From positions 289,409-344,001 of the forward strand of contig CAZETU010000001.1 in NCBI GenBank assembly GCA_964514585.1: 54,593 bases of DNA, in the 5' to 3' direction. Of the stretch, positions 8,793 to 53,437 are shown in pieces; position 1 is the stretch's first letter, and every line of letters begins with the position of its first letter. This stretch comes from Candidatus Woesearchaeota archaeon. GTDB taxonomy: Archaea; Nanobdellota; Nanobdellia; Pacearchaeales; GW2011-AR1. The notes under the pieces were generated by a model. It had not been told where the DNA came from, ran no database searches, and saw only the letters and a list, made by a program, of their open reading frames with translations. A program made the translations under genes and the position numbers.

Positions 8793-9887
8793 ATGGATGA
8801 AGCACAAAAATTCGAACTCGAAAGTTTAGTTGAAGAACTAGAAGGCTATCGCGGCAGACACACAGAACTCATTACAGTTATGGTCCCAGCAGGAGCTACA
8901 CTAACCCAAACAACAAAACAACTAGAAGACGAAAAAGGAACAGCAACAAACATCAAATCAACAGGAACAAGAAAAAACGTAATCAACGCACTTGAAAGAG
9001 CAATCAGAAAATTAAAAGAAATAGAAAGAACCCCGCCAAACGGCCTAGCAGTTTTTTCAGGAAATGTAGAAAAATCCGACGGCAAAGAATATTTAGAAGT
9101 CTGGGCAATCGAGCCACCAAAAAAACTCAAGATAAAAATTTACCGTTGTGACCAAACATTTGTTTTAGATCCTCTTAAAGAAATGCTTGATACCGACGAA
9201 GCATACGGGCTCCTAATCATCGAAAGAAACGAAGCATCTATCGGAATATTAGACGGCAAACACATAAAACTCTTGCAAAACATGACTTCAGGCATCCCAG
9301 GAAAAACAAGAGCCGGCGGACAGTCAGCTCAAAGATTCGCACGAATACGAGAATCAGCCGCAAAAGAATTCTTTAAGAGAGTAGCAGAAGCAATGAAAAA
9401 ACATTTCTGGGAAAATAAAAAACTCAAAGGAATCATAGTAGGGGGACCAATCCCAACAAAAGAAGAATTCCTAGATCAAGGCCAACTTGTAACAGCTCTA
9501 AAAAACAAGGTAATCGGAGTAAAAGACATAGGCGGAACAGGAATGCACGGACTTCACGAATTAGTAGAAAAGTCAGAAGATCTCCTGGCAGAACAAGAAA
9601 TGACAAAACAACGATTAATCCTAGACCTCTTCTTTGAAAAACTAGCCAAAGAACCAGAGAAAGTAGCATACGGAGAAGCCGAAGTCGAAAATCGATTAGC
9701 AAGGGGTGCAGTAGGAAAATTAATTATTTCAAAATCTCTTTCTAGAGAAAAAGTAAAGTTACTAGAAAAATCAGCAAAGGAATCATCAACAGAAATTCAC
9801 ATCGTCACAAAAGAAACCGCAGAAGGCGTCCAATTCGACAATTTAGGTGGAGTCGGCGGAATTCTAAGATTCGCAATTCATGACTAA
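8793..9887 (+). CDS. prf1: peptide chain release factor aRF1
   Basis: NIKS motif, 'YRCDQTF', GGQSA motif. Confidence 0.97.
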   Translation: MDEAQKFELESLVEELEGYRGRHTELITVMVPAGATLTQTTKQLEDEKGTATNIKSTGTRKNVINALERAIRKLKEIERTPPNGLAVFSGNVEKSDGKEYLEVWAIEPPKKLKIKIYRCDQTFVLDPLKEMLDTDEAYGLLIIERNEASIGILDGKHIKLLQNMTSGIPGKTRAGGQSAQRFARIRESAAKEFFKRVAEAMKKHFWENKKLKGIIVGGPIPTKEEFLDQGQLVTALKNKVIGVKDIGGTGMHGLHELVEKSEDLLAEQEMTKQRLILDLFFEKLAKEPEKVAYGEAEVENRLARGAVGKLIISKSLSREKVKLLEKSAKESSTEIHIVTKETAEGVQFDNLGGVGGILRFAIHD

Positions 9888-10229
9888 CGCCGGCGTATGG
9901 AGTTGGCGAACAATTCGCTTTTTCGAATCCAAATATATCAAGACTATCTTTCGAAAATGCAAATTGTGAGTAGGAATTCTAAGATTCGCAATCCACGATT
10001 AATTTTCCCCACGAAACCTTTTTGCAAACTTAGCCTGTAGACTTGCTTCAATTGAAGCATTCTCTCTTAGTTCATTCAGCCCAAGAGCACAAAGGATTTC
10101 ATGTCTCTGTTCAGTAGTTAAGTTAGTTATCTCAGGAGGGGAATATCCAACACTAGAATCATAGGCAACATCATCTCTCATACAGGCAACTACATTCTAA
10201 CATTTATTAAGATTCCTATCCACGACTAA
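9858..10229 (+). repeat. three direct copies of the aRF1 3' end (9858-9887, 9973-10002, degenerate 10207-10229)
   Basis: GGAATTCTAAGATTCGCAATTCATGACTAA vs GGAATTCTAAGATTCGCAATCCACGATTAA (27/30) vs TTAAGATTC-CTATCCACGACTAA. Confidence 0.9.
9999..10181 (-). CDS. hypothetical protein (60 aa) inside the repeat-bounded insert
   Basis: ATG-started ORF that nearly fills the segment between repeat copies 2 and 3; its stop lies inside copy 2. Confidence 0.45.
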   Translation of the reverse strand: MRDDVAYDSSVGYSPPEITNLTTEQRHEILCALGLNELRENASIEASLQAKFAKRFRGEN

Positions 10230-10259
10230 TTTTTTAAACTCTCCAAACATACATTTAAT

Positions 10260-10847
10260 ATGGAAGAAACTGAAAATCAGGTGACACATAATACTCCCGT
10301 TATCACCGAATCAACAGCCGAAGAATTAGACAACACATTCGAAGAAAACGAAAAAGAATCCGAATCAAAAGTCGAAGCTGCCCTTTTCATCGCAGGCCGA
10401 TTCTTAAATCTCCAAGAATTAATCATGCTAACCGACGTCAACCCAATCATGCTCAAAGAAATTTTGAGTCGTCTTGAAAAAAAATATTCAGAACAAAATT
10501 CAAATGTCCTCAGGCTAATCAATCGAAGCAATTCATGGAAAATGGACGTCGATGAAAAATATCACTACCTAATAAACAAGCTAGCAACGGGCAACGCAGA
10601 ATTCACAAAAGCAGAACAAGAAACCCTAGCAATCATTGCATACAAACAGCCAATCAAACAATCTGTTGTAATCAAAATCCGAGGCAACAAATCCTACGAC
10701 CATATTAAAAAATTCAGACAATTAGGCTTAGTCGTCGCAAAACAAATCGGCCACACATTAGACCTTTCACTCTCCGAAGAATTCTACGAATATTTCAACG
10801 TACATAAAGCCGAACCAAAAGAAGAAAACAAACAGGAGCAAGAATAA
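10260..10847 (+). CDS. scpB: SMC-Scp complex subunit ScpB
   Basis: 'VEAALFIAG', 'ETLAIIAYKQPI', 'IRG' ScpB signature. Confidence 0.92.
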   Translation: MEETENQVTHNTPVITESTAEELDNTFEENEKESESKVEAALFIAGRFLNLQELIMLTDVNPIMLKEILSRLEKKYSEQNSNVLRLINRSNSWKMDVDEKYHYLINKLATGNAEFTKAEQETLAIIAYKQPIKQSVVIKIRGNKSYDHIKKFRQLGLVVAKQIGHTLDLSLSEEFYEYFNVHKAEPKEENKQEQE

Positions 10848-12079
10848 TGGAATTTCTAACAATCCTATACTTCACTTATACCTTCATCGCATTTTACTTC
10901 CTTTTTATCTATATACTAACATACATACAAAACAAAAAACACATCTACGAAATAATTAAACCAAATAAGATAAGGTCCCTAAGTATAGTAGTCCCTTGTT
11001 ACAACGAAGCTGAAAGCATAGGAAAAAATATAGAAGCATTTTTAGCATCAAATTACGAAGGATTAAAACAATTAATCATAGTAGACGATTGTAGCACAGA
11101 CAACTCTTACGAAATCATAAAAGAATACGCAAGAAAATATTCAAAAGTAATAGCATTACAAACCCCGAAAAACACAGGTAGAGCCGCAGGAGCAAAAAAC
11201 TTTGGAGCCAAATATGTTAAAACAGAACTAATAGGTTTTAGCGACGCCGATTCAATTCCTAAAAAAGATGCAATAAGTAAAATGGTAGGATTCTTCAATG
11301 ATGAAAAAGTGGGGGCAATAACATCAAGAGTTTTTGTGGAAAATCCAAAAAACTTCCTAGAAAGAATCCAATCAATTGAGTATAAAATCATGGCATTCAC
11401 AAGAAAATTACTTGGATTTTTAGACTCAATCTATGTGACAAATGGGCCTCTAAGTATTTACAGAAAAAAAGCATATGATGAAGTGGGTGGATTTGATATG
11501 AAAAATATGACCGAAGATATAGAAATAACCTGGCACTTTGTTTCAAAAGGTTGGAAAGTCAAAATGTCAATACCCGCAAGAGTTTATTCAGTTGTTCCAA
11601 AAACAGTAAAATCATGGTTTCATCAAAGAATTCGTTGGAACGTCGGAGGAATCCAAACCGTCGCAAAATACAAAAAGAAAATCGCTCAATGTGGGATGCT
11701 TGGATATTTTATTATACCATTCTTTGTTCTCTCCTGGTTTATAGGACTAACAGGCCTCTTCTTTTTGACCTACCGTATAAGTAAATATCTAATCACAAAA
11801 TATCTCGTGACAAAATATTCAATAGTAGCTCAAGTTGCAGTCTTAGAATTAAACGACTTCAGTTTCAGCCCAAGCATACTTTTCTTCTTCGGAATCTTGC
11901 TTTTCACCCTCGGTTTCGCATACACTTTCGTAGCACTAGGCCACTCCAAAGAAAAAGGCTGGCTAATCGGACACTCTCTCTACGACATCTTTATATACTC
12001 GTTCTTCTACTTGCTAATGTACCCACCGTTGCTGATAATATCTTTTTATAAATATTTCAGAGGATACAATACCTGGTAA
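10847..12079 (+). CDS. family 2 glycosyltransferase, integral membrane
   Basis: 'IVVPCYNE', 'VDDCSTD', DAD, 'TED', QRIRW (QxxRW) and C-terminal TM helices. Confidence 0.92.
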   Translation: MEFLTILYFTYTFIAFYFLFIYILTYIQNKKHIYEIIKPNKIRSLSIVVPCYNEAESIGKNIEAFLASNYEGLKQLIIVDDCSTDNSYEIIKEYARKYSKVIALQTPKNTGRAAGAKNFGAKYVKTELIGFSDADSIPKKDAISKMVGFFNDEKVGAITSRVFVENPKNFLERIQSIEYKIMAFTRKLLGFLDSIYVTNGPLSIYRKKAYDEVGGFDMKNMTEDIEITWHFVSKGWKVKMSIPARVYSVVPKTVKSWFHQRIRWNVGGIQTVAKYKKKIAQCGMLGYFIIPFFVLSWFIGLTGLFFLTYRISKYLITKYLVTKYSIVAQVAVLELNDFSFSPSILFFFGILLFTLGFAYTFVALGHSKEKGWLIGHSLYDIFIYSFFYLLMYPPLLIISFYKYFRGYNTW

Positions 12080-12080
12080 A

Positions 12081-12731
12081 ATGTTAAAAAGTAATAAACA
12101 TATTTTTTGGGAAGCTCTAATAATCACAATCGTGATTTTCTTAATGGGACTTTTTTTAGGAATGATGATAGAAGCAGGACATTCCAACGAAATCAACAAT
12201 TTCTATCTAGCATCAGAAGCAAACCTAATAGATGGCATGGCACTCTCACAAATTTCAGGAGGAAGTCATATAAGTTGTGAAACAATAAAGCAAAAAAACA
12301 TAGATTTCGCAAACAAGGTATATGAAGAAGCAAAGCTACTCGAAAAATATGAATCCTCACAAAAATTAACAGAAAATTTAAAGATAATACATAAAAAATA
12401 CGATCTACTAAGAACACTGGCATGGATAAGCAACTCAAACTCCCTAGAACAGTGTCAAAATTACGATCTAGTAATCTATCTATACGAATATAACTCAGAA
12501 AACATAACAAAAAAAGCAATTCAAAATGTATGGTCAAAAATTTTACTTGATGTAAAAGAAGAAAATGAAGACATGATTCTTATACCAATAGCTTCAGACC
12601 AAGACATCACTTCATTAGAAGTTTTAATGGAAAAATATGGCGTATCAAGCTTCCCAGCACTGGTTATCAACAACCAAGAAGTAATCTATTCTCTAGAAGG
12701 TTCAGATCAAATCAAGAGCCTTCTAAACTAA
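12081..12731 (+). CDS. membrane-anchored hypothetical protein with thioredoxin-like C-terminal region
   Basis: N-terminal TM helix; C-terminal 'KYGVSSFPALVIN'; coupled to the GT2 gene. Confidence 0.6.
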   Translation: MLKSNKHIFWEALIITIVIFLMGLFLGMMIEAGHSNEINNFYLASEANLIDGMALSQISGGSHISCETIKQKNIDFANKVYEEAKLLEKYESSQKLTENLKIIHKKYDLLRTLAWISNSNSLEQCQNYDLVIYLYEYNSENITKKAIQNVWSKILLDVKEENEDMILIPIASDQDITSLEVLMEKYGVSSFPALVINNQEVIYSLEGSDQIKSLLN

Positions 12732-12782
12732 TATATACTAGACCACATATTTACTTAAAAATAACTTCTTCCATTGAAATTC

Positions 12783-13628
12783 ATGAGATGTACAATATGT
12801 AAGAAAGAATCAGATGAGGTAGAATTGTTTTCAGGAATCCTTAACGCAGAAATGGTCAATATTTGTGAAACGTGTGCAGAAAGCGAAAGTGTTCCAATTA
12901 TCAAAAAACCCTCAGAACAACAACTCGAAAAAGCCGAAGAAAGACAATCCGTCAGAGAAAGAATGGAAAGAATGTCAGGCATGAGAGAGGCAACAGAAAT
13001 CAGTCCAGAACAAACAATCGTCCAAGGAAATCTAGCAAAATTACGAATACCAGAAAAAAAACAACATCACCCAGACGTCCTAGATAATTATTACTGGACA
13101 TTAAACATAGCAAGACGAAGATCAAAAATGACAATCAACCAAATCGCAGAAAAAGCCCAAATCAACTCAATCCTAATCAGAGAAATCGAAAAAGGAAAAC
13201 TCCCAGAAAACTTCCAAGAAATATTCCTCAAATTAGAATCCATCTTAGGAATCAAGCTCTTAAAAAATCACGAAAACAAAATAAACTTCGTTAGAACTCA
13301 CGACGAAGAACAAGATATTCTAGAAAACGTTCGAGCTAAAATGAACGGCACTTCACTTACAGAAGAAGAAGAGTTCCCCCAAGAAATTGATGAAGAAACC
13401 AAGGAAGCAAAAGCAGAGCTTATTAACAAACGAAAGAAAGAAAAACTAGAAAAACTATCAAAAGGAGAGGCTGACTTCTCAAAAAGAACAGACCTAGAAA
13501 ACGTCACATTAAACGACCTTGTCGAAATGAAAAGACAACGAGAAGAAAAAGAGTCTCAAAGAAAAACTAGGACCCAAGAAGAATCCATGCTTGGAGAAGA
13601 CATAGACCTAGAACTAGAGGAAATATAA
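12783..13628 (+). CDS. zinc-ribbon + XRE HTH protein (aMBF1-like) with charged C-terminal extension
   Basis: CxxC...CxxC at the N-terminus; 'LNIARRRSKMTINQIAEKAQINSILIREIEKGK' HTH. Confidence 0.7.
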   Translation: MRCTICKKESDEVELFSGILNAEMVNICETCAESESVPIIKKPSEQQLEKAEERQSVRERMERMSGMREATEISPEQTIVQGNLAKLRIPEKKQHHPDVLDNYYWTLNIARRRSKMTINQIAEKAQINSILIREIEKGKLPENFQEIFLKLESILGIKLLKNHENKINFVRTHDEEQDILENVRAKMNGTSLTEEEEFPQEIDEETKEAKAELINKRKKEKLEKLSKGEADFSKRTDLENVTLNDLVEMKRQREEKESQRKTRTQEESMLGEDIDLELEEI

Positions 13629-13858: not shown

Positions 13859-13865
13859 TTCTAAA

Positions 13866-14399: not shown

Positions 14400-14400
14400 T

Positions 14401-15036
14401 CTATCCCAAATATCGCAACCGTCCAGGCCGCGGCTCATAAATCAAACCCTCTTCCAATAACTTCTTAATATCAGCATTAATCAAATCAGGACTAGCCTCA
14501 ACATCCATAATAATCGTATCAATATCAATCCCACCCTCACCCTCAGCTTCCTTAATCTTACTCATAATCGAATCCTTCAACGACGAATCCCCACTCTCCG
14601 CAGCCGGCATATCCTTCCGAGCATTCTGAATCTCCAATTTCCTAACCAACAACCATCGAGGATCAACCTTCTTAATCGCTTCAGGAATCATATACAACTC
14701 ACCATTCCACTCTCGAACATTCCCAATAACCTGCAAAGTATCCCCCTGAATAATATCCTTCAACGGCTCAATATCCTCCCCAAAAGCCTTCAAACGAATC
14801 TGCCCCGAAGCATCATCAACCGTCAAACTCGCATACTTCTTCTCGCCATCCTGAATAAACTTATCAACACAATTCGCCAAAATATTCACCCGCACAATCT
14901 TCTTATCACCAAGCTCCAAAAACAAAAACTTTCCCTCGTCCATCATCGACTTACCCTTAAGAATATCACCAATCCGCATCTTAAACGCAACATTCCTCTT
15001 CCTAATCTCACCACCAACAGGCGCATCTGCTTCCAT
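14401..15036 (-). CDS. replication protein A subunit (RPA32-like, OB fold + winged helix)
   Basis: 'RVNILANCV', 'LTVDDASGQIRLKAF', C-terminal 'LLEEGLIYEPRPG'. Confidence 0.85.
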   Translation of the reverse strand: MEADAPVGGEIRKRNVAFKMRIGDILKGKSMMDEGKFLFLELGDKKIVRVNILANCVDKFIQDGEKKYASLTVDDASGQIRLKAFGEDIEPLKDIIQGDTLQVIGNVREWNGELYMIPEAIKKVDPRWLLVRKLEIQNARKDMPAAESGDSSLKDSIMSKIKEAEGEGGIDIDTIIMDVEASPDLINADIKKLLEEGLIYEPRPGRLRYLG

Positions 15037-15106
15037 CAAAAAAAATATCAACCTGACTTTATAAGGATTATTGGGATTGAGTTAAGGAAATTTCAAATTA
15101 TTTAAC
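15031..15106 (-). repeat. intergenic direct repeat, copy 1 (stop codon + TATA box + start context)
   Basis: 20-bp identical core ATTATTGGGATTGAGTTAAG at 15067-15086 and 16272-16291; similarity extends on both sides. Confidence 0.85.
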
Positions 15107-15829
15107 TGCCTCGACCAATGTAATATTCCCATCATCTAAAGCCCCTCTCCAATAATTCTCACCAAACTTTTCTATACCCTCTTTTGATACTTCTAACGGA
15201 GCCCATGTAATTTTATTAAACCCAGCTTTCTTAAATGCAGTCTCATAAGTTTGCTTAGACCAGTGATAATTAATAAACGAACACAATTCCTTTTCACCGT
15301 CATAAATTGTTATTTTAATTGGGCTACCTTCCTCAAGTTTATTCCCACAAATCGCCGTTGCACCATACTTCTTCCCATTCGTTAGGGGCTGATCGGGGTT
15401 AGCATTGATACCAATAAACCGCCCACCCTTATTCAAATTCTTATAAATATTAGTGCACATTAACTCCAACTCTTCAACAGTTTTAGAATAGTGCAATAAA
15501 AACTCTCCAGTTACCAATTCAAACTCTCCAAGCTTCTCAAGAGAAATTACATCCCCAACACTATATTCAATATTTAAAGGACTATCATTCTCTTTTTGTT
15601 TTGCAATCTTAATCATCTCCTCAGAAATATCTATTCCCGTAACTTTCTTAGCTCCATTCAGAACAAGTTGCCTAGACAAAAATCCATCCCCACAGGCTAA
15701 GTCTAAAATCTCCTTACCTTCCAAATCACCCAACCATCTAAAAACTGTAGGCAAAACCATGTAATTTTTCTTAGGATGAATATCTCCAACAAAACTATAC
15801 TCTTTCGCAATCTTATCATACTCAGCCAT
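15098..15829 (-). CDS. class I SAM-dependent methyltransferase, ToxA-like
   Basis: 'ILDLACGDG', 'GIDISEEM', 'LLHYS', 'FINYHWSKQTYETAFKKAGF', 'YW' follow the ToxA-type small-molecule N-methyltransferase layout. Confidence 0.85.
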   Translation of the reverse strand: MAEYDKIAKEYSFVGDIHPKKNYMVLPTVFRWLGDLEGKEILDLACGDGFLSRQLVLNGAKKVTGIDISEEMIKIAKQKENDSPLNIEYSVGDVISLEKLGEFELVTGEFLLHYSKTVEELELMCTNIYKNLNKGGRFIGINANPDQPLTNGKKYGATAICGNKLEEGSPIKITIYDGEKELCSFINYHWSKQTYETAFKKAGFNKITWAPLEVSKEGIEKFGENYWRGALDDGNITLVEAVK

Positions 15830-15879
15830 AAAAATAAAAAAGAATTCTCATATATATAATTAACCACTTCTCACAATTA

Positions 15880-16236
15880 CTAAATAACTCTCCATCCCTT
15901 TCCATATTTTTTCTCAGCAACAAAAATATCATAATAGGAAAAACTTCTCGTATAGGGAAGTCGGCTTACTCTTCGTCTATGACTAGTCCGTCCAATGTCA
16001 TTCTCATCAATTATAACTCTTGAAACTCCCCACATAGGCGCCCACCCAACAAAATCAACTCTCATTTTCAGCTTTTCCCTTTCTCTAGTTAAATTTCTAG
16101 GATCAATAACCTCACCTTGTCTCAAACTAACAGCATCAGACCCATAATCCATCCATAATCTAACAACATTCCCTGGCGCAAAATCCCCAGGAGAATAACG
16201 CCTCCATTCTATAATAGGCATAACAATTTCTTCCAT
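15880..16236 (-). CDS. hypothetical protein
   Basis: ORF inside the repeat-bounded cassette, with the TATA box supplied by repeat copy 2. Confidence 0.55.
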   Translation of the reverse strand: MEEIVMPIIEWRRYSPGDFAPGNVVRLWMDYGSDAVSLRQGEVIDPRNLTREREKLKMRVDFVGWAPMWGVSRVIIDENDIGRTSHRRRVSRLPYTRSFSYYDIFVAEKKYGKGWRVI

Positions 16237-16309
16237 CTTCAAAATAAAATACGAGCTGATTCCTTATAAAAATTATTGGGATTGAGTTAAGAATATTAAG
16301 TTATTTAAC
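16231..16309 (-). repeat. intergenic direct repeat, copy 2
   Basis: matches 15031-15106; core offset 1205 bp. Confidence 0.85.
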
Positions 16310-18648: not shown

Positions 18649-19482
18649 TCAATTAAACACAAACTCACTCCGCCCAAAAATAATCTCCTCACTCCCTCTC
18701 TTGTAAATCCCAACAAAATCTTCCCCACAAAACAAAGCAAAAACATCCCCATTCTTCAAATCATCCCCACCTTCAACATTAGAACTATACAAAGGCTTCC
18801 CCGTATGAAGCGACTTAATAGCAGACTTATCAACCTGGGCAACAGGCAAAACCTTCTTTATAGCATCCTCAGCCCGAACAACCATCCCCTTCAACAAACT
18901 CCCATCTCCACTCTTATACAAATCAACCGCTTTCTCAAAATCATACAAACTAACAATACTACCCTCATCAAAAATCCCAGCTTCACCTCTTCGTAACTCC
19001 CCCATATGCGCCCCGCCAATCATCTCGCCCAAATCACTACAAATCTTCCGAATATACGTCCCACCTTCAACCTTACACTCAAACAAAAAATCCCGCTTAG
19101 TATCCCCAGCCTCCAAAAATTTAAAACTATAAACAGTCCTCTCCCTCTCCTCCCTCTTAACAGCACTCCTATGCGGCGGCGTCTGCTTAATCTTCCCAAC
19201 AAAATTATCATCAATCAACTTCTGCAACTCCGTCATATTCTGATCCTTATGCGTATGCAAAACCCCAACATAACTCTTATCATGTTTAATAAAATATCCA
19301 GCCAACTTACAAGCCCGCCCAAGCGTAATCGGCAAAACCCCAGTCACCTTAGGATCCAACGTCCCCATATGCGAAGTCTTCTTCAGCCCCAACTTCCGCC
19401 GAACAAACTCACTAACAGAATAAGACGTAGGCCCAGCCGGCTTATCAATATTAATCAAACCAAAATTCAAAAGGTCTTCCAT
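18649..19482 (-). CDS. cbf5: RNA-guided pseudouridine synthase Cbf5/TruB family
   Basis: 'IDKPAGPTS', 'HMGTLDPKVTG', 'GTYIRKIC', C-terminal PUA-like region. Confidence 0.9.
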   Translation of the reverse strand: MEDLLNFGLINIDKPAGPTSYSVSEFVRRKLGLKKTSHMGTLDPKVTGVLPITLGRACKLAGYFIKHDKSYVGVLHTHKDQNMTELQKLIDDNFVGKIKQTPPHRSAVKREERERTVYSFKFLEAGDTKRDFLFECKVEGGTYIRKICSDLGEMIGGAHMGELRRGEAGIFDEGSIVSLYDFEKAVDLYKSGDGSLLKGMVVRAEDAIKKVLPVAQVDKSAIKSLHTGKPLYSSNVEGGDDLKNGDVFALFCGEDFVGIYKRGSEEIIFGRSEFVFN

Positions 19483-38547: not shown

Positions 38548-38745
38548 TTACTTCCTAGGCGTAATAACCCACATAATCAAATAAGCCAAAATTCCAGCTC
38601 CAAAACTAAAAATAGTAATCAATATCCAAAGCAACCGAATCAAAGTCGGATCAGCCTCAAAATAATTCCCAATCCCAGCACAAACACCACCAAGCATAGA
38701 ATCCTTCTCCGCCGCCCGATACAACCTCTTAACCTTCTTAGCCAT
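38548..38745 (-). CDS. PspC domain protein
   Basis: 'LYR...MLGGVCAGIGNYF..DPTLIRLLW...GILAYLI.W'. Confidence 0.92.
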   Translation of the reverse strand: MAKKVKRLYRAAEKDSMLGGVCAGIGNYFEADPTLIRLLWILITIFSFGAGILAYLIMWVITPRK

Positions 38746-38759
38746 AACATATACAACAA

Positions 38760-38782
38760 AAATTACTTTATAAAATTATTCT
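38760..38782. repeat. 23-bp perfect direct repeat, copy 1
   Basis: AAAATTACTTTATAAAATTATTC, identical at 39860-39882. Confidence 0.88.
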
Positions 38783-39846
38783 TCAGTCTCAATTATCACT
38801 TTGCCAGTCGCAACAGAGTTCAATACTTCATTATTATCTTTTACGTAATCATAAAATTCACGATAGGTCATCACCTTGGACCCACTATTTTCAATGTATT
38901 TTAGAAATTTATCTAAATCTTTAAGCTTTTTCTCGCTATCAAAGGTATTAACATGAAGCTGCAAAACAAACAAATTAGATTTCTCAAAAGCATCAATCCA
39001 TTCATCAGAAGAAGTATGCCTAAAATCTTTAGTGTACCAACCATAATGCCATATAGGATCATAACTACGAGGAGTAATAATAACACCATCATCAAAATAA
39101 GTTTTTGGGACATGTGTATTTCCAATAATCTTAAACCCAGCTTTTTTAACATTATCATATTGTTCATCAGTCCAGTAATTACCAGGAGGAAAATAGGAGA
39201 CAAAAGATTTCCCAAAAGTTTTTTCTAGAGACTGTTTTCCTATAAAAATATTATACCAAATTTCTTCATATTTAGGACAATAATTTACATTCCTACAATG
39301 ATTGTATCCATGCATTGCTAACTCATATCCCTTATCATCTAATTCTTTCAGATATTCAACCATCTCCTCATCATCATTCAAGTCAAAATTTTCTTGAACC
39401 TCCTCCACAAAAATATACGGAGTAAGTCCCAACGAAGCAGTAAAGCCATATTTATCAATTATATCAGAGACCTCTCTATATCTTTCCATCGTATAGCCAT
39501 AACTCGCGAAATAAGCCGATGTATCATTTATATTCCAGTAATCATCAATCTCAATTATCAAAATTTTTTCATCTATCCTAACTGTAGTTTCCTCATCTAA
39601 TTTTGCGGAAGTATATTTAACAAATCCAAGTCCAAGAAAAGAAACAACAACCAAAAATAAAAAAATAAAAAATAAAATTTTTTTATATCTCTCAGTCAAT
39701 TTAACTAACATCTTAAAGAAACGATTCAATAATCCAAACTCTATCAACAATAAAAATATCAAAAAGACAATAGCAATGTCAAAAATTCTTATAGCTAATA
39801 CATTATAAAATTCAGACAAATCCATCCCAGAGTAAAATCCCAACAT
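38776..39846 (-). CDS. membrane-anchored polysaccharide deacetylase (DUF2334-like)
   Basis: two N-terminal TM helices; 'IEIDD', 'ELAMHGYNH', 'YFPPGN', 'LQLH' NodB-type motifs. Confidence 0.85.
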   Translation of the reverse strand: MLGFYSGMDLSEFYNVLAIRIFDIAIVFLIFLLLIEFGLLNRFFKMLVKLTERYKKILFFIFLFLVVVSFLGLGFVKYTSAKLDEETTVRIDEKILIIEIDDYWNINDTSAYFASYGYTMERYREVSDIIDKYGFTASLGLTPYIFVEEVQENFDLNDDEEMVEYLKELDDKGYELAMHGYNHCRNVNYCPKYEEIWYNIFIGKQSLEKTFGKSFVSYFPPGNYWTDEQYDNVKKAGFKIIGNTHVPKTYFDDGVIITPRSYDPIWHYGWYTKDFRHTSSDEWIDAFEKSNLFVLQLHVNTFDSEKKLKDLDKFLKYIENSGSKVMTYREFYDYVKDNNEVLNSVATGKVIIETEE

Positions 39847-39859
39847 AAAAACAATAATT

Positions 39860-39882
39860 AAAATTACTTTATAAAATTATTC
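39860..39882. repeat. 23-bp perfect direct repeat, copy 2
   Basis: identical to 38760-38782; offset 1100 bp. Confidence 0.88.
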
Positions 39883-39889: not shown

Positions 39890-40456
39890 CTAATTACCCC
39901 TTCTACGGTTCGCTCGAAGCGACGGTCTAACCTTAGGAGCCTTAATAGGACTATTTCGGAGTCCCCTAGCCTTTCGACCAGCAGAAGTAATTCCCCTCAA
40001 AGATCTCTTCTTTGGAGCCTTAACAAAAGCGCCAAGTTCCTTATCAGACTTAATCTCAGGAGCAACACGGTCAACCAAAATCACTTCAAAGAAATAATTC
40101 ATCCCATCCTTTCCAACTTGATAAGAATTCAAAACTTCCATATTATTATATTTCCGAGCAACCCTAGACTCAGCAATCTCCTTATAATTCATCTTAAGAT
40201 TTTTCCTAATATGCAACCTCTTCGTTCTCCTCGCTTTATTCGGCCTACTCTTCTTATGACCACCACGCTTAATTCTAATCCTAACAACAGTAACGCCCTT
40301 CTTCGCTTTATACCCAAGAGCCCGAGCCCTGTCCAATCTCAACGGTTTCTCAACCTTAACAATCGACTCACCCTTTCGCCACTCAATCATTCTTTCCCGA
40401 AGTATTTTCACATCAGGCTTTCTCCATGCCAATCTCAAATATTTTGTTAAACTCAT
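39890..40456 (-). CDS. rpl15e: 50S ribosomal protein eL15
   Basis: 'RLDRARALGYKAKKG', 'IAESRVARKY.NMEVLNSY', 'GLTS/GITSAGRK'. Confidence 0.96.
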   Translation of the reverse strand: MSLTKYLRLAWRKPDVKILRERMIEWRKGESIVKVEKPLRLDRARALGYKAKKGVTVVRIRIKRGGHKKSRPNKARRTKRLHIRKNLKMNYKEIAESRVARKYNNMEVLNSYQVGKDGMNYFFEVILVDRVAPEIKSDKELGAFVKAPKKRSLRGITSAGRKARGLRNSPIKAPKVRPSLRANRRRGN

Positions 40457-46443: not shown

Positions 46444-46566
46444 GCAATCTCTCAAGAACTATTTATGGCTTTAAGAAAGCGAAGTTTTCTTCTTTTGAAA
46501 ATCGAAGATTTTCAGTTTTCTATTCATGTTTTTATAGACTCTACTTTCTAAGCAATCTTTCAAGAA
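46444..46566 (-). repeat. duplicated minD 3' segment (46444-46458 vs 46552-46566) flanking two GAA-triloop hairpins
   Basis: GCAATCTCTCAAGAA vs GCAATCTTTCAAGAA; AAGAAAGC-GAA-GTTTTCTT and GAAAATC-GAA-GATTTTC lie between them. Confidence 0.7.
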
Positions 46567-47293
46567 AAGTCTTACTTATTTCAATTTTCTCACCACTAAC
46601 TTTTCGAGCAATCTCAACATACTTCTTCGCAACCTTGCTTCGTGGATGAGTGTGAACAACGGCATCCCTCAAATTCAAAGCTTCTTTAACAGCCTTATCT
46701 TCAGGGACAACTCCAATTATCTGAGCCTCAAGCATAGACTTAATCGAAGACAAAGGCATCTCGTATTTCGCATTACTATGTCGAGTCACAACAACCCCAT
46801 TAATCTCCTTTCCCATTTGTCGAGCAACCTTAACAGCCTTAAGCGCATCAGTAACGGCAGGCATTTCAGGATTAGTCACAATAATAATTTCATCAGCAGC
46901 TTCAATAACAGCAATAACCTCGTCACCAAACCCAGCAGCAGAATCAACAATTACATAATCACAAAGTTTAGCCAACTTCTTCATAATCTCAGGTAACTTC
47001 TTCGTATTAAATTTAGTCAACTCCTTAACTGAAAGCGACGACGGTATAATCTTAGTTCCAGAAGAATGTTCGTAAATAGCGTCCTCAATATCAGCTTTCC
47101 CCTTCAGAACATGATTTAAAGTCACAGGAACAATCGGCGCACCAAGCTGCAAACCAACATTAGGAGTATTCAAATTAGCATCGACAATAATAACTTCCTT
47201 ATCCAACTTATTCAGCGACGTTCCTAAATTAATAGCAGTAGTGGTCTTACCAACACCGCCTTTCCCTGAATTTATTACTATTATTCTTGCCAT
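46541..47293 (-). CDS. minD: MinD/ParA family ATPase
   Basis: deviant Walker A 'SGKGGVGKTT', 'DANL..PN', 'VDSAAG', 'VTNPEMPAVTDA'; in-frame upstream ATG at 47332. Confidence 0.92.
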   Translation of the reverse strand: MARIIVINSGKGGVGKTTTAINLGTSLNKLDKEVIIVDANLNTPNVGLQLGAPIVPVTLNHVLKGKADIEDAIYEHSSGTKIIPSSLSVKELTKFNTKKLPEIMKKLAKLCDYVIVDSAAGFGDEVIAVIEAADEIIIVTNPEMPAVTDALKAVKVARQMGKEINGVVVTRHSNAKYEMPLSSIKSMLEAQIIGVVPEDKAVKEALNLRDAVVHTHPRSKVAKKYVEIARKVSGEKIEISKTFLERLLRK

Positions 47294-47370
47294 AATTTCA
47301 TCTTCATAATAATGGTACTCTTCGAGCGCCATAATTTTTCGTCATAATAATGGTACTCTTCGGACGCCAT
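47294..47370 (-). repeat. two tandem 38/39-bp units, each starting ATGGC, directly upstream of the minD ATG
   Basis: ATGGCGTCCGAAGAGTACCATTATTATGACGAAAAATT and ATGGCGCTCGAAGAGTACCATTATTATGAAGATGAAATT. Confidence 0.9.
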
Positions 47371-47459
47371 CTTAAATCAACGTGTAAATATCAGAAAAAC
47401 TCGGTTTATAAGCTTTATCAGTCGAAAGGTTAAAACGCCTCGACCTTTAAAAAAGAATA

Positions 47460-48876: not shown

Positions 48877-48877
48877 C

Positions 48878-49033: not shown

Positions 49034-49044
49034 ACATAAACAAA

Positions 49045-49665
49045 CTAATTTCCCTTTTTAATTCTTTCCAAAGCCAAATCTTCCCTATTCCTCGACCGCC
49101 CAACAGTCTGCCCAAACCGAACCAAAATCCAATTAATAGAATTCCAATATCTCCGCGGAAACAATTTATTCAAATCCTTCTCAACTTTATTTGGATCTAA
49201 ATTCTTAGTCCAACCCATCTTCCGAGAAATCCGACCAACATGGGTATCAACCCCAATAGCAGCAGCCTTTTTCACCTCAACCAAATAAACATTCGCAGTC
49301 TTCCGCCCAACCCCAGGAAACTTCATCAACTCATCAACGCTCTCATTCAAACCACCTTCAGCAATCATCCCAGCCGTCGCCTTAATATGCCGAGCCTTAG
49401 TCTTATAATAATTAATAGAACCAATATCTTTCTCAATCGAAGAAAGCCGAGCCCTTCCCAATTTCTCAACCTTATCATATTTTTTAAAAAGTTTCTCACA
49501 AACAGCAACGGTTTTTGTATCTCGAGTCTGAGCCGATAACATTATAGCAATCAAAGTTTGCCAATTCTCATTCCAACCCTCGGCAGCCAACCGCGGACTT
49601 TCCCCAGTCTGTTCGACCAACTTCTCAATCTCTTTCAATTGCTCCACTGCAAGTTTAGAATCCAT
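49045..49665 (-). CDS. nth: endonuclease III family HhH-GPD glycosylase lacking the 4Fe-4S motif
   Basis: 'LIAIMLSAQTRD', HhH 'FPGVGRKTANV', 'VDTHVGR'; no C-terminal Cys cluster. Confidence 0.88.
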   Translation of the reverse strand: MDSKLAVEQLKEIEKLVEQTGESPRLAAEGWNENWQTLIAIMLSAQTRDTKTVAVCEKLFKKYDKVEKLGRARLSSIEKDIGSINYYKTKARHIKATAGMIAEGGLNESVDELMKFPGVGRKTANVYLVEVKKAAAIGVDTHVGRISRKMGWTKNLDPNKVEKDLNKLFPRRYWNSINWILVRFGQTVGRSRNREDLALERIKKGN

Positions 49666-49813
49666 AAACTATCAAGCACACTTTCCTTAAAAAACATTTA
49701 TATAACATCTATAGAGACATAAAAACACTACGTCCACGGCATCTATATCTACTCGCAAAATATAAATCAGATTAGAGCATAACCTCACGTTTCAAAAACA
49801 AATACCACATTTC

Positions 49814-50269
49814 TTAAATTATCCCCGCATGTTCAAAGACTTCACAGACCCCATCAGAATAAATAGTCCACCCAAAGCTCCCAGAAGCAAGACGTTCCCT
49901 CCTCCTAATTTCACATGTCGTAGGAATAGTTTCTCCTCCAATAAAATTATTCTCCCTCAAAATTTCCTCGGCTGCCTCTTGCATTTCTTCATCACTCATC
50001 CGAGCCCAACTACATCCCATAAAATCACGATATGCATTTCCAATTCCAGAAAGCGCAACAACAATCCCAGATTCCGAATCTTGACTAATACCAGTAATCA
50101 TTAACTGCGAATCAACAAGAGCCTTATATCCTCTCAACCTCCTCTTGACCCCTGCAACATACCCTCTATTAACTTCCTCAAAAGCCAAATGACTCAAAAC
50201 GTCATCCAATCCTACCTCCAATTCAAACAAAGGATTTCCATCAACAAAAAATCCCAACACTGATTCCAA
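49814..50269 (-). CDS. hypothetical protein
   Basis: 151-aa ORF with TTG start and a TATA-like box upstream; no motif recognised. Confidence 0.5.
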   Translation of the reverse strand: MESVLGFFVDGNPLFELEVGLDDVLSHLAFEEVNRGYVAGVKRRLRGYKALVDSQLMITGISQDSESGIVVALSGIGNAYRDFMGCSWARMSDEEMQEAAEEILRENNFIGGETIPTTCEIRRRERLASGSFGWTIYSDGVCEVFEHAGII

Positions 50270-50330
50270 CGGCCCACTCGTAAAAATAAAAAATCATTCG
50301 AATATATAAAAATTGTTACACCAAACTATC

Positions 50331-51614
50331 CTACTTCGCCCCTATCTTCTTCAACCCACCCATATAAGGCTGCAAAACTTTCGAAACATTAATCGACCCA
50401 TCCTTATTCTGATTATTCTCCATCAAAGCAATCAAGGCCCTTGGCGAAGCAACAACTGTATTATTCAAAGTATGCGCAAAATAATTCCCACTTCCACCAT
50501 TAATTTTAATTCCAAGTCGCCGAGCCTGAGCATCCTCTAAATTAGAACAACTCCCAACTTCAAAATACTTCTTCTGCCTCGGACTCCACGCTTCAACATC
50601 CGCCGATTTCGCTTTCAAATCCGCCAAATCTCCACTGCAACATTCCAACTTCCTAACAGGAACATCAAGGCTCTTAAAAAATTCAACAGTCCAATTCAAC
50701 ATCTTGTCATACCACTCATAACTATTCTCAGGTTCACAAACGACAACCATCTCTTGCTTCTCAAATTGATGCACACGATAAAGACCACGCTCCTCAGCCC
50801 CATGCGCCCCCTTCTCTTTCCTAAAACAAGGCGAATAACTAGTCAAAGCCTGCGGAATCTCACCCTTCTTCATCGTCTTATCCTTAAACATCCCAATCAT
50901 CGAATGTTCACTCGTCCCAATCATATACAAATCCTCACCTTCAATCTTATACATCATCGCGTCCATCTCCTCAAAGCTCATAACGCCAGTCACAACATCA
51001 CTCCTAATCATAAACGGCGGCACACAATACTCAAAGCCCTTACCAATCATAAAATCCCTAGCATAGGTCAAAACCGCCGCATGAAGTCGAGCAATATCTC
51101 CCCTCAAAAAATAAAACCCCTGCCCCGAAGTCTTCCTCGAACTCTCTATATCTAACCCCCCAAGTTTTTCAGCCAACTCAGTATGATTAAAAATCTCATA
51201 ATCAGGGACTTTAGGTTCGCCAATCTTCTCCAACTCAACATTCTCAGTATCATCCTTACCCAACGGCACAGTCTCATGAATAATCTGCGGAATCCTCATC
51301 ATTATCTCTCGAATTTTCTCACCCAATTTATCTTCCTTAGCCTCAATCTTTGCAATCTTCTCAGGAATTTTCTTAGCCTCCGCAATCAAACCCTTTGCAT
51401 CCACTTTCTTCCCCGACTTCATCACCTGATTAATCTGCTCACTAATCTTATTCCGCTCACTCCTCAAGTCATCCGCCCTCTTTCTCTCTCTTCGCCACTT
51501 CAAATCCAAATCAATCACTTCATCAACAAGCTTCAACTTCTCATCCTGTCCTTTCTTCCGAATATTCTCTCTAACCAAATCAGGATTCTCCCGAACCAAC
51601 TTAATATCTATCAT
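50331..51614 (-). CDS. serS: serine--tRNA ligase
   Basis: 'MIDIKLVRENP', coiled-coil arm, 'GTSEH', 'CFRKEKG', 'VHQFEKQE', 'HTLNNT'. Confidence 0.97.
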   Translation of the reverse strand: MIDIKLVRENPDLVRENIRKKGQDEKLKLVDEVIDLDLKWRRERKRADDLRSERNKISEQINQVMKSGKKVDAKGLIAEAKKIPEKIAKIEAKEDKLGEKIREIMMRIPQIIHETVPLGKDDTENVELEKIGEPKVPDYEIFNHTELAEKLGGLDIESSRKTSGQGFYFLRGDIARLHAAVLTYARDFMIGKGFEYCVPPFMIRSDVVTGVMSFEEMDAMMYKIEGEDLYMIGTSEHSMIGMFKDKTMKKGEIPQALTSYSPCFRKEKGAHGAEERGLYRVHQFEKQEMVVVCEPENSYEWYDKMLNWTVEFFKSLDVPVRKLECCSGDLADLKAKSADVEAWSPRQKKYFEVGSCSNLEDAQARRLGIKINGGSGNYFAHTLNNTVVASPRALIALMENNQNKDGSINVSKVLQPYMGGLKKIGAK

Positions 51615-51644
51615 ATAAAAAATAAACTCAGAATATATTTAAAT

Positions 51645-52094
51645 CTACCTGATACGTCGAGCCAAAACCCGACCCAAATTTTCAAGTCCTCGATTTCTTA
51701 TATATCTAATTTTTTCACAACCAACTCCAATTTCTTTGGTGATAACATTTATTTCTTTACCCTGAAAATATATTTTTCTTAGAACGTCAGCATATCTTTG
51801 CCCATCAGGATTTTCAGAACCATAACCTTCAGCACTATTTCCTACAGAATAATGAATCTGTTCCATTTCACCCAAGGCTGCTTCTATCTCTTCAATTAAT
51901 TCAGCTCTCTGTATCCTATCTTCATATGGGAATTTCCGAAAAAGACCTACGGTTTTCATTCTATCTTCAAATTCTCTTTGCGCCTTAGATGTTCCAGGAT
52001 GATCCCTCATTCTCTCCCTAATCTTAACATAGTGCGACATGCTACGACATCCCTTACCTCGCGCCCAATTATTCATATCCATTATTACTCCCAA
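51645..52094 (-). CDS. hypothetical protein with sigma-70 region 4-like HTH
   Basis: 'VLRKIYFQGKEINVITKEIGVGCEKIRYIRNRGLENL' fits the region-4 pattern. Confidence 0.55.
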   Translation of the reverse strand: MGVIMDMNNWARGKGCRSMSHYVKIRERMRDHPGTSKAQREFEDRMKTVGLFRKFPYEDRIQRAELIEEIEAALGEMEQIHYSVGNSAEGYGSENPDGQRYADVLRKIYFQGKEINVITKEIGVGCEKIRYIRNRGLENLGRVLARRIR

Positions 52095-52158
52095 GAATTA
52101 TTACTTTTAAATTCTCCCTTTCATAAAACTTATTAACATAACTCTCTAGCCCATACCC

Positions 52159-52863
52159 ATGGACGACAAAGAGCTCATAAAAAAAGTAAGAAATTCTCTA
52201 ATTGCAAAAAAATCCAAATCAGAAATACTACGAGGTTTCCAAAAAAGAGGCTACAAATTAGAATACGCTGAAGCACTCCTAAACAAAGCCAAAAAGCCAA
52301 AAAAAGTCGTCACGGTCCTAACTTTATTAATAATCGTTTCAGCCCTACTATTCGCAACATTCTACATCTCATTTTTAACAGGCCAAAAAACAACCTTAAC
52401 AAATCCGCTTGCAGGCTTCACAATCACAGGAAATACTATAGCAGATTCAAATCCCCAGATTCCTCAAGGTACCCAAATCCTAAATCAAAACTCAACCACA
52501 GAAAAATCCCTAGAGCAAATCGAAATAACTCCAGAATTCATATCCTTCCTACTCCAAGAAATTGGCGCAAGCCAACTCCATTCAAATCTCCTAGAAAAAC
52601 CAATAATAAACGTCAAAATAGAAGATCAAGTATTTCATTCAATTATCGGAAACGAAATAAAAACAACAGAAGGTCTAAGTGAAGATGCAGACATCCAATT
52701 CAACACAAATAAACCAGATTTAGTCGAGGCTATAATATCAGACAATCCAGAAATAATCTTCAAAGAATCAATCACAAGCGGCAACACTCAAATCGAACTC
52801 AAAACAAGCGAAACAGAACTCTTCTCAAAAGGATACCTCGGACTTTACGATTCCCTAAGATAA
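52159..52863 (+). CDS. membrane-anchored protein with SCP2-like C-terminal domain
   Basis: one TM helix; 'EDADIQF', 'IFKESITSGNTQIE', 'ELFSKGYL.LY'. Confidence 0.6.
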   Translation: MDDKELIKKVRNSLIAKKSKSEILRGFQKRGYKLEYAEALLNKAKKPKKVVTVLTLLIIVSALLFATFYISFLTGQKTTLTNPLAGFTITGNTIADSNPQIPQGTQILNQNSTTEKSLEQIEITPEFISFLLQEIGASQLHSNLLEKPIINVKIEDQVFHSIIGNEIKTTEGLSEDADIQFNTNKPDLVEAIISDNPEIIFKESITSGNTQIELKTSETELFSKGYLGLYDSLR

Positions 52864-52992
52864 CCAATAATTTATTTTGTCTGCTACCACTCTAAAATTT
52901 TCTGTCACCAACGCCCAATTCTTGTACCTACTACCCATGGACGAATTTTCAGAGAAAGACTTAAAAGCAAAATATCATTCTAATATATACAT

Positions 52993-53010
52993 TAGAACAT
53001 ATATGTTCTA
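52993..53010. promoter_or_regulatory. perfect 18-bp palindrome, candidate autoregulatory operator
   Basis: TAGAACATATATGTTCTA, ending 10 nt before the wHTH ATG. Confidence 0.6.
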
Positions 53011-53020
53011 CCTTAAAACC

Positions 53021-53287
53021 ATGGGAGACAGCTTTGATTTATTTTTCAGAAGAAAGCCAGCGATGATGCTCATAGCCCTAAAGAAGGTTTCTCGAGCAAA
53101 ATACGGATCACAACTAGCAAAAGAAGTTGACTGCACATATTCTCACGCTGTAAAAATTCTACAAAACCTTGAAGAGCTAGGGCTAGTAAGCTTCGAAAAA
53201 AAAGGCAGAATCAAAATAATCAAGTTAACCAAAAGGGGAACTGATGTTGCAGAACATATAGAAGCAATCCGAAAAATTGTTGGGTAA
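53021..53287 (+). CDS. MarR-like winged-helix transcriptional regulator
   Basis: 'YGSQLAKEVDCTYSHAVKILQNLEELGLV.FEKKGR.K..KLTKRG'; start MGDSF chosen. Confidence 0.85.
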   Translation: MGDSFDLFFRRKPAMMLIALKKVSRAKYGSQLAKEVDCTYSHAVKILQNLEELGLVSFEKKGRIKIIKLTKRGTDVAEHIEAIRKIVG

Positions 53288-53437
53288 TTCTCAAGTAATC
53301 CTAAAGATTATATATTAGTCATAATTTTATTCCGGGAGTCGCGTCTCGCGGAATAAAACAAAAACAATTCGGCAGAATCACCTTGCCCACAAGGCATTAG
53401 TCACATAGAAGCTATCCGAAAAATTGTTGGATAATTC
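53255..53437 (+). repeat. duplicated regulator 3' end (53255-53290 vs 53402-53437) flanking structured element copy B
   Basis: 33/36 identity; TTTTATTCCG-ggagtcgcgtctcg-CGGAATAAAA hairpin at 53325-53358. Confidence 0.9.

Follow-up and report, generated by a model that had tools for sequence, protein, structure and literature searches.

Coliphage 21 and the element e14 integrate into the 3′ end of icd and carry a replacement end for that gene, and related kinds include elements with tyrosine integrases of the tRNA T-loop class and integrase-less derivatives of the CIME type. In fungal mitochondria, partial C-terminal duplications of cob and atp6 are flanked by LAGLIDADG or GIY-YIG open reading frames (ORFs) (PMC6279837); homology-facilitated illegitimate recombination is described for Rhs C-terminal displacement and for the effector-immunity arrays of the type VI secretion system (T6SS) of Vibrio cholerae (PMC5361080); and the tRNA-linked repeats (TLRs) of Escherichia coli end in an 18–19 bp copy of the upstream tRNA or rRNA 3′ end, some of them being processed small RNAs (sRNAs) (PMC8144298). 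Here we describe short inserts in the terminal 54.6 kb of contig C1 (CAZETU010000001.1, positions 289,409 to 344,001; 54,593 nucleotides in all, hereafter the window) of a Candidatus Woesearchaeota archaeon of the genus GW2011-AR1, each lying between two copies of a host gene end or of a junction of stop codon and promoter. As a preliminary description of the window had stated, the inserts leave the host gene or promoter intact, the terminus being present twice, and neither neighbouring gene is damaged. The same description proposed one att-like micro-cassette system, which is supported only in part: the inserts come from at least two or three processes and not from one system. Among them are a hairpin element of many copies, a module resembling an sRNA and ordinary cargo genes, to which relatives add genes for homing endonucleases.

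The genome that holds the window (G000) is a metagenome-assembled genome (MAG) of 1.04 Mb in 18 contigs with 37% G+C, 89.7% complete and about 90% coding, its genes having been called by a length-based caller. It was compared with 48 further species of the same genus at a core-gene nucleotide identity of 65–85% (other G and L labels denote congeneric genomes and loci); the relatives' MAGs, collected with the aRF1 protein and labelled Woesearchaeota, Pacearchaeota or Nanoarchaeota, labels that place G000 among the DPANN archaea, stem from several studies and assemblers, and empty sites were compared between species only. Within the window, seven direct-repeat pairs score at least 18 within 2.5 kb, compared with none in third-order Markov simulations (n=20). 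Genome-wide, the last 42 nt of genes recur at most 2.5 kb downstream in seven independent cases, above the controls (0–1 for internal segments and 0 for reverse complements). Loci outside the window are at FttA/aCPSF1, TYW3, Kae1, a NiFe-hydrogenase-like gene, dUTPase and the start of a KH-domain gene, and repeat length over all loci runs from 15 to about 139 nt. Five window loci consist of inserts between 15–39 nt copies of a gene end or of a stop-plus-promoter junction (Table 1), and of seven loci examined (with the aRF1 array taken as a single locus) five have solid statistical support. The gene-end repeats described at aRF1 (27 of 30 positions identical, plus a third, decayed copy) and at the MarR-like winged helix-turn-helix (wHTH) gene (33/36) are borne out, as are the two intergenic repeats of stop codon and TATA box (30/34 at the methyltransferase junction; 23 nt exact and 32/39 overall at the deacetylase junction). 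The gene-end repeat claimed for minD matches at 14/15 nt, stops short of the stop codon and does not rise above the noise of the genome-wide scan; the repeat reported at the window start is a genuine 58-nt tandem unit, but it straddles a 100-N scaffold gap and its copy number is uncertain.

Behind aRF1, which has orthologues in 40 of 41 relatives, three copies of the gene end stand in series. The aRF1 stop codon lies 1–100 nt from scpB in G019, G022, G023, G004, G007 and G013, an empty site, and the outermost window copy (c3) is followed by the same conserved TATA-type promoter as in relatives, which identifies c3 as the ancestral aRF1 end. Other species have different inserts of 0.25–2.1 kb behind aRF1. 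Insert A carries one copy of the hairpin element R1 described below, and insert B carries a convergent 60-aa ORF (9999–10181, minus strand) without a recognised family. A three-copy array is also present in L176, and in both arrays the middle copy is intact and the outermost has an indel; the middle copies differ from the working copies by synonymous changes only (3/3 in G000; 4/4 in L176, plus a TAG/TAA difference at the stop). R1 is found behind aRF1 in G000, G016 and L176 only, and the 18-nt spacer and hairpin of L176 nearly match those of G000 (15 of 18 spacer bases), which indicates that the recurring unit is gene-end copy, spacer and hairpin together. Two T-loop-like motifs, GAATTC and GATTCG, occur in the aRF1 end; these are exactly the places where the repeats of five species have their boundaries. 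As far as the sequences can be read, the three-copy arrays fit a sequential displacement in which the newest unit would stand nearest the gene. The tRNA-Leu insert of G015 contains what may be a remnant of the aRF1 end (17/26–30 nt), no more than a suggestive match on which no argument here is based.

At the methyltransferase cassette, the promoter stretch next to the OB-fold gene aligns in many congeners and everything upstream of it does not, and the cassette has no DNA match in the 48 congeners. In at least ten congeners, only 0–40 nt separate rpl15e from pspC; the deacetylase gene stands between the two only in G000, and in other species the same junction holds other inserts of 0.5–0.95 kb. 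The wHTH gene in congeners usually precedes a promoter and tRNA-Lys, which is again an empty site. Judged from empty sites in congeners, a comparison that had been proposed beforehand and that yielded them for at least four loci, the inserts are true insertions, and the presence of different inserts at the same junctions in different species marks these junctions as hot spots. The wHTH insert looks like an sRNA module or gene, or an operator. A near-palindromic motif of the TTCC-GGAGTCGCGTCTC-GGAA type lies about 10–25 nt 3′ of a TATA-like box in three genome copies (window 53300–53356, C5:41187–41220 and C5:44033–44068), each then followed by a different second hairpin; the motif may possibly represent an sRNA family or an operator.

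The cargo is heterogeneous and has no end motifs in common except within the R1 family. The remaining cassettes, insert B and those outside the window included, hold a NUDIX gene, a protein with an ATP-grasp/PPDK_N-like fold and, for the rest, ORFans; the cassette ORFs lacking a family have no match in Pfam even at E up to 10, nor in PHROGs, and two G000 cassette proteins have no homologue in the 48 congeners. At the TYW3/FttA locus two units stand in tandem, and in each of them unrelated cargo is enclosed by fragments of the gene ends from both flanks. No insert contains a recombinase, and the G000 cassettes are without a recognisable mobility gene. Repeat length varies at one and the same gene (20–23 versus about 120 nt at Kae1, a 6-fold difference; 36 versus 58 nt at the MarR-like gene), and this variation speaks against an att site of fixed extent in the case of the cassettes. 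A single-gene cassette behind Kae1 in G000 (C2:117344–117940; L037:1545–2141, minus strand) encodes a 198-aa protein with a confidently predicted fold (Atlas pTM 0.74), whose nearest structural neighbours are PPDK_N/ATP-grasp-type domains as well as small proteins of Bacillota and phages; the Atlas structure comparison gave nothing usable for a second cassette protein.

Table 1. Gene-end and junction copies, inserts and neighbouring features in the window, in window coordinates
Feature	Position	Strand	Remarks
Tail of 58-nt tandem array	1–72	+	Unit is the upstream gene's last 15 nt with stop plus a 43-nt insert
aRF1 gene (peptide chain release factor)	8793–9887	+	Pfam eRF1_1/2/3; working end copy c1 at 9858–9887
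Insert A: 18-nt spacer and one R1 hairpin mini-element	9888–9972 (85 nt)	+	Covariance-model match 9897–9975
aRF1 end copy c2, presumed displaced former end, intact	9973–10002	+	3 synonymous differences from c1
Insert B, 209 nt	10003–10211		Unique to G000, no DNA match in 40 relatives
aRF1 end copy c3, decayed by one indel	~10212–10232	+	Then conserved TTTTTTAAAC promoter of scpB (10260–10847)
Native stop-plus-promoter junction, copy 1	15059–15092	-	Upstream of RPA-like OB-fold gene (14401–15051)
Cargo cassette: S-adenosylmethionine (SAM) methyltransferase (15098–15829) and 120-aa ORFan (15880–16242)	15093–16263	-	Pfam
Second stop-plus-promoter junction copy, 30/34	16264–16297	-	Now drives the cassette
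Junction copy (GAA-TAA and TATA box) before pspC (38548–38745)	38743–38781	-	Supplies the deacetylase stop codon
Cargo cassette: polysaccharide deacetylase/DUF2334 gene	38776–39846	-	Pfam
Junction copy at end of rpl15e (39890–40456)	39844–39882	-	Direct repeat of 38743–38781
minD 3′ region, 14/15-nt repeat	46444–46566	-	Chance level, judged outside the phenomenon
Tandem 38/39-nt units at minD 5′ end	47301–47370	-	Different repeat kind
wHTH (MarR-like) gene	52877–53290	+	Pfam; working end c1 at 53255–53290; orthologues in 45/48 congeners
111-nt insert: TATA-like box, palindromic hairpin motif (~53321–53356), second hairpin	53291–53401	+	
Displaced wHTH gene-end copy c2	53402–53437	+	3 synonymous differences

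It had been claimed that all substitutions between the nearest gene-end copies are synonymous. This is so at aRF1 and at the MarR-like gene (3/3 each); elsewhere in the genome TYW3 (one synonymous change to four that are not) and dUTPase (0:3, including a nonsense change) break the rule. Among seven pairs from four genomes (aRF1 in G000, G016 and L176, the wHTH gene in G000 and G044, FttA, and the start of the KH-domain gene), 19 of 20 changed codons are synonymous, with p ~0.002 if the displaced copy were neutral. Given this bias, the intact state of the displaced copies and the native 41-codon Kae1 ends of relatives, it is very probable that each of the two copies served at some time as a functional gene end, as the preliminary description had supposed. 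On our reading, the displaced ends of highly conserved proteins either worked until recently or are still selected through recombination with the working copy, and older or less constrained displaced ends have decayed. A diversity-generating retroelement (DGR), with its pair of variable and template repeats (VR/TR), was considered for the gene-end repeats and rejected, the mismatches being T/C, A/T and G/A at third codon positions and not adenine-specific. A genuine DGR is present at C7:1963–3271 of G000, with a variable repeat at a gene end (1963–2042), a template repeat (2338–2417) and the single reverse transcriptase of the genome (2654–3271); all 11 of its mismatches fall on template adenines.

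Kae1 bears on which of two copies is the newcomer. In G018 the gene overlaps the start of its downstream neighbour, an empty site. In G052 and G007 a complete Kae1 with a divergent C-terminus is followed by one convergent gene and then by a second copy of the last 41 codons and stop; this distal end is intact and genus-typical, and in G052 it has 67% nucleotide identity to the working copy over 118 nt. A recoded working end together with an intact native distal end suggests that the working terminus came with the insert and that the native terminus was displaced, an arrangement that follows the icd/phage 21 logic invoked in the preliminary description. The gene between the two Kae1 ends is a free-standing LAGLIDADG homing endonuclease, and six or seven of 24 free-standing LAGLIDADG genes in congeners have a protein-level duplicate of the neighbour's terminus on their far side. 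G000 itself has no match to the LAGLIDADG domain (PF14528), its cassette ORFs have no significant similarity to the 24 congeneric LAGLIDADG proteins (best E 0.04–0.2), and a protein-level scan of G000 for recoded terminal duplicates returned only the DNA-level cases and tandem paralogues.

Further observations concern the same genes. At L137 (G007:C1), L138 (G043:C22) and L140 (G009:C12), a free-standing LAGLIDADG gene lies just 5′ of an RtcB-like gene whose first 12–36 codons are doubled: the working start is heavily recoded, and the upstream remnant looks native. G000 has a single LAGLIDADG-like remnant (C1:19462–19689; tblastn E=1e-8 against congeneric endonucleases), which adjoins the distal copy of a 150-nt duplicated gene start (C1:17576–17724 and 19141–19290). 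The Kae1 coding region is broken by extra segments of about 55–175 nt at two recurrent positions in G019, G043, G054, G057, G018, G044 and G007, and these may be short in-gene insertions or mini-inteins.

Insert A aligns with 70–80-nt sequences at other loci of relatives, and these make up the R1 element of about 77 nt. Nine copies fold into a common long hairpin with 18 base pairs, and at 10 of these pairs both sides have changed; paired cells amount to 91% compared with 80% in shuffles, and none of 500 shuffles reaches the R1 value. The structure lies in the sense of the upstream gene and includes G-U pairs, and the covariance-model score of insert A is strand-specific (75.7 bits on the plus strand versus 18.7 on the minus). 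A covariance-model search gave about 340 copies in 41 of the 49 genomes at 0–28 per genome, with six in G000, one of which is in the window. At least 22 of the 36 copies at 30 fetched loci are followed by a mostly exact 17–33-nt copy of the upstream tRNA 3′ end, beginning −2 to +5 nt from the R1 3′ end and inside the T-loop at (G/A)AATCC, in agreement with the end copy of about 18 bp behind a tRNA or rRNA gene by which the E. coli repeats are recognised. R1 normally stands close behind tRNA genes, of more than ten species, tandem arrays occur, and the right junction is precise and the left variable. Given that T-loop-like boundaries recur and that the right junction is precise, a step specific for site or structure is indicated for the hairpin family, and for this family alone an att-like mechanism mobilised in trans is plausible on the sequence pattern. 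An Rfam search of the window and of the surroundings of element copies returned tRNAs only, and the family appears to be undescribed in print, the nearest published counterpart found being the TLRs of E. coli. Two further R1 copies in G000 have unusual surroundings: at C4:73238–73475 an intact tRNA-Cys gene lies beside a second tRNA-Cys gene split at the anticodon arm by an R1 hairpin, and the copy at C1:115733 is flanked by a decayed tRNA-Leu copy of about 65 nt in inverted orientation.

The preliminary description had stated that no integrase is present in the window and had pointed to recombinases elsewhere in the genome. The window is indeed free of integrases, all six tyrosine-recombinase matches of the genome search lying outside it and not linked to the elements; serine-recombinase matches are marginal, Cas1 (PF01867) has no match in G000 at its 89.7% completeness, and the Y1 HUH transposase does not co-occur with R1, being present in 12 of 49 genomes versus 41 for R1, with many R1-rich genomes lacking it. 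Three described kinds of element were rejected for R1. A miniature inverted-repeat transposable element (MITE) or other DNA transposon does not agree with a single long hairpin, flanking repeats of 17–33 nt and variable length, and a variable left junction; an IS200/IS605-derived hairpin element (PATE/REP-like) does not agree with the Y1 distribution or with the presence of a target duplication; and casposon or Cas1 integration was set aside on the lack of a PF01867 match. G000 does contain two IS200/IS605 Y1 transposase matches with identical scores and one in-frame TGA each (C5:31193–31552 and C5:59638–59997). Three tandem tyrosine-recombinase genes at C16:196–2663 lie on a 3.5-kb contig and may be shufflon-type or a foreign fragment, and on C9, which also encodes a tyrosine recombinase, 24–28-nt direct repeats at 1.3–1.7-kb spacing delimit gene blocks (C9:2076–5120 and C9:10937–11419).

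The explanation to which we give about as much credence as doubt is one of terminus-displacing insertions, in which gene-end replacement is joined by hairpin-element and homology-anchored capture processes. On one side of an insert would lie a working copy of the last 15–40 bases of the host gene (or of the stop-plus-promoter junction), which most likely came along as a replacement end; on the other side would lie an older copy of the same bases, the displaced former end. The newest insert would stand next to the gene, with older ones pushed outward and decaying. In a first process, seen at aRF1, a unit of gene-end copy, spacer and hairpin would be moved by an enzyme or by recombination between genomes. 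In a second, the deacetylase, the methyltransferase with its ORF, insert B and the wHTH sRNA-like module were most likely acquired from related lineages, the incoming DNA pairing homologously with a conserved gene on one side and joining illegitimately on the other; the resident terminus would thereby be shifted and not replaced, by homology-facilitated illegitimate recombination as in C-terminal displacement. In relatives, and not in G000, free-standing LAGLIDADG genes would build an equal architecture with a recoded gene end. What the sequences themselves show are the repeats, the empty sites and hot spots, the element family with its structure, the intact displaced ends and the endonuclease cases; from these we infer in which direction events ran, that a donor supplied the working copy, and each step ascribed to an enzyme.

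At TYW3/FttA, in the aRF1 array and at Kae1, a conserved anchor gene is followed first by unrelated cargo and then by displaced orphan termini. Tandem units such as those at TYW3/FttA would be expected from recombination that is homologous on one side and illegitimate on the other, or else from a circularised fragment that integrates in the Campbell manner. Homology-anchored capture had been named beforehand as an alternative to att-like recombination; it fits the cargo cassettes at least as well, and the att-like mechanism stays plausible for the hairpin family only. Survivorship probably sharpens the pattern, since with spacers of 0–40 nt only insertions that keep the signals of both neighbours survive.

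Several points weigh against an origin by terminus-displacing insertions. Over all nine pairs the ratio is 20:8 and the synonymous excess is not significant (p=0.27), the division into seven pairs and two having been made post hoc. Several repeats are exact (20, 23 and 26 nt; 18–25 nt at tRNAs), which de novo target duplication explains equally well. The aRF1 boundaries recur at two fixed positions in at least four species and the MarR boundaries lie within 5 nt in two species, which indicates site preference and not random illegitimate joins. The hairpin follows more than ten different tRNAs, each with a matching end, which is awkward if every unit must carry its own end. The G000 cargo genes are without a homologue in the 48 congeners, so that a congeneric donor is not demonstrated; the assemblies compared showed no donor, recombination tract, circular junction or excision event, and no mobilising enzyme was identified among the candidate families searched in G000.

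The rival that survives best extends the att mechanism to all of the inserts, which is unlikely. Tiny non-autonomous integrative elements, with an attP holding the host gene 3′ end, would be integrated and excised by a recombinase encoded elsewhere, and the gene ends at attL and attR would both be under selection. The architecture is that of classical integration at gene 3′ ends, in that the direct repeats are formed by the gene 3′ end and the gene is restored (aRF1, the wHTH gene, FttA, Kae1) and the tRNA repeats run from the T-loop to the 3′ end (17–25 nt); the aRF1 boundaries are T-loop-like and recur across species, accretion is in tandem with the newest unit beside the gene, and displaced ends are constrained. 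The six tyrosine recombinases outside the window also agree with this mechanism, but Xer-type enzymes are near-universal, so that their presence discriminates little, and no integrase lies in or beside any insert. The 6-fold variation of repeat length at the same gene, the very small circles that inserts of 43–111 nt would need, and heterogeneous cargo without common end motifs outside the R1 family all argue against it.

A second rival is de novo target-site duplication, which is live for the exact tRNA repeats and quite unlikely as an explanation of the whole. Transposase- or casposase/Cas1-like enzymes would make nicks staggered by 15–40 bp at gene ends and T-loops, gap repair would duplicate the target, and the copies would diverge later. 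The tRNA repeats are mostly exact, each agreeing with the particular tRNA at its site across more than ten tRNA species, the hairpin has its precise right and variable left junction, and casposons target the 3′ ends of tRNA and EF-2 genes. The search results given above for Cas1 and Y1 count against this explanation, as do repeat lengths of 15 to about 139 nt, the xenologous or recoded working copy in G052 and G007, and the synonymous divergence in the seven pairs, which has a p of ~0.002 if the displaced copy was neutral.

There is a small chance that the micro-inserts are co-transcribed sRNA modules in which the repeated 3′ end is kept as a shared signal for 3′ processing or termination. The E. 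coli TLRs set a precedent (PMC8144298), the R1 structure, with its G-U pairs and covariation, belongs to one strand only, that of the upstream gene's sense, and the MarR insert has its own TATA-like box and hairpins; the cargo cassettes, promoter duplications and endonuclease cases are left unexplained, and 0–28 copies per genome together with tandem arrays look like a proliferating element. The sRNA reading is compatible with terminus-displacing insertions, and both can hold. Chimeric joins of co-occurring strains in the MAG are very improbable and were excluded by argument only: exact 55-nt repeats of a k=55 graph with 100-N gaps (one at the window start) and synonymous differences of the sort that two strains would show speak for them, but the repeats at issue are of 20–45 nt and imperfect and hence not k-mer overlaps, the junction of insert and displaced copy is unique sequence and so lies on a real molecule, and independent MAGs, produced in different studies with different assemblers, have equal architecture at the same genes.

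Other features of the assembly and of the window stand apart from these questions. Exact 55-nt short-spaced direct repeats with 100-N gaps are found in G000 at C1:18368–18733, C4:86671–86880, C7:36207–36324 and C1:289196–289480; they are typical of k=55 graph assembly, and local copy numbers there are therefore unreliable. The array at the window start has two units 5′ of the gap and one plus a partial copy after it, and the uncertainty in its copy number arises because the exact 55-mers at the gap edges are assembler k-mer overlap; the last partial copy (59–72) has TAA instead of TAG and adjoins the promoter of the next gene. The strong repeat at minD is the 38/39-nt tandem duplication at the gene start, whose three differences are non-synonymous. 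Here (window 47274–47418) two tandem units, each beginning ATGGCG, precede the conserved MinD start, one in frame as a 13-codon extension and one out of frame, and the unit motif matches other loci in at least eight congeners, sometimes twice on one contig. The whole genome has an extreme strand asymmetry, with a third-codon-position GC skew of −0.48 to −0.77, or of +0.26 to +0.70 on other contigs; the skew is counted in plus-strand letters and is the same whichever strand a gene is on, is matched by an AT skew, has one polarity per large contig, and is strong enough to throw off a codon-usage gene caller (single-strand calls). Insert composition tracks the strand bias of the host and gives no clue to origin.

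A compact genome, about 90% coding with genes 0–40 nt apart, has almost no neutral place for an insertion, and new genes and sRNAs may enter where the insert brings or regenerates the neighbour's end or promoter. The displaced ends, decaying outward, would form a dated fossil record that could serve to reconstruct gene gain in uncultured DPANN archaea. Two leads stand out: a hairpin family of about 340 copies that tracks tRNA T-loops and is without a known enzyme, and archaeal chromosomal homing endonuclease genes with recoded host-gene ends, an arrangement so far mainly known from fungal mitochondria. Displaced ends and split pseudo-tRNAs are easily miscalled in annotation. As a tentative possibility, and one we would not bet on, DPANN archaea may carry an undescribed mobile system in which a structure-defined hairpin unit with a replacement gene end, mobilised in trans, integrates at T-loop-like cores in the 3′ ends of tRNA and protein genes, with the same machinery stacking cargo cassettes at gene junctions; if true, this would be an integron-like route of gene capture that never breaks the host gene.

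Compared with integrative elements at gene 3′ ends, the inserts are alike in being adjoined by the working gene end and followed on their far side by the displaced former one, with mostly synonymous divergence between the two, in tRNA repeats that start at the T-loop and in tandem accretion; they are unlike them in the absence of an adjoining integrase, in sizes down to 43–111 nt, in a repeat length that is inconstant per site and in the placing of one R1 family behind more than ten tRNAs and a protein gene. The fungal homing-endonuclease duplications are matched in G052 and G007 (Kae1) and in G007, G043 and G009 (RtcB-like gene), where a LAGLIDADG gene stands between a recoded working terminus and an intact native one, whereas G000 is without a LAGLIDADG domain and its cassette ORFs are not significantly similar to endonucleases; as far as the sequences tell, a recoded working end beside a native remnant is the state in G052 and G007, and synonymous differences only are that in G000. 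To our knowledge, such endonuclease-linked terminal duplication has not been described in archaeal chromosomes.

Rhs and T6SS displacement shares with our loci the anchor in a conserved gene, the shift of old 3′ pieces and cargo downstream and the newest unit beside the gene; here, in contrast, only the last 15–120 nt are replaced, the same protein is encoded, promoters and gene starts are affected too, and we know of no documented natural DNA uptake in these archaea. Like the E. coli TLRs, R1 is a short non-coding unit behind tRNA genes with a terminal end copy, sometimes in tandem, but the archaeal element has a covarying hairpin core and hundreds of copies across the genus and is also found behind a protein-coding gene. 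Integron cassettes (attC, IntI) are likewise promoterless single-gene cassettes stacked at a fixed place, with a hairpin defined by structure; unlike them, the present inserts have no IntI and no attI/Pc platform, their repeats are 15–40-nt host gene ends and not 7-nt core sites, and most cassettes are hairpin-free. Apart from one member of the hairpin mini-element family, which it also includes, the finding is best filed with integration that restores a gene end, terminal duplication linked to homing endonucleases and displacement facilitated by homology, all three of them known kinds.

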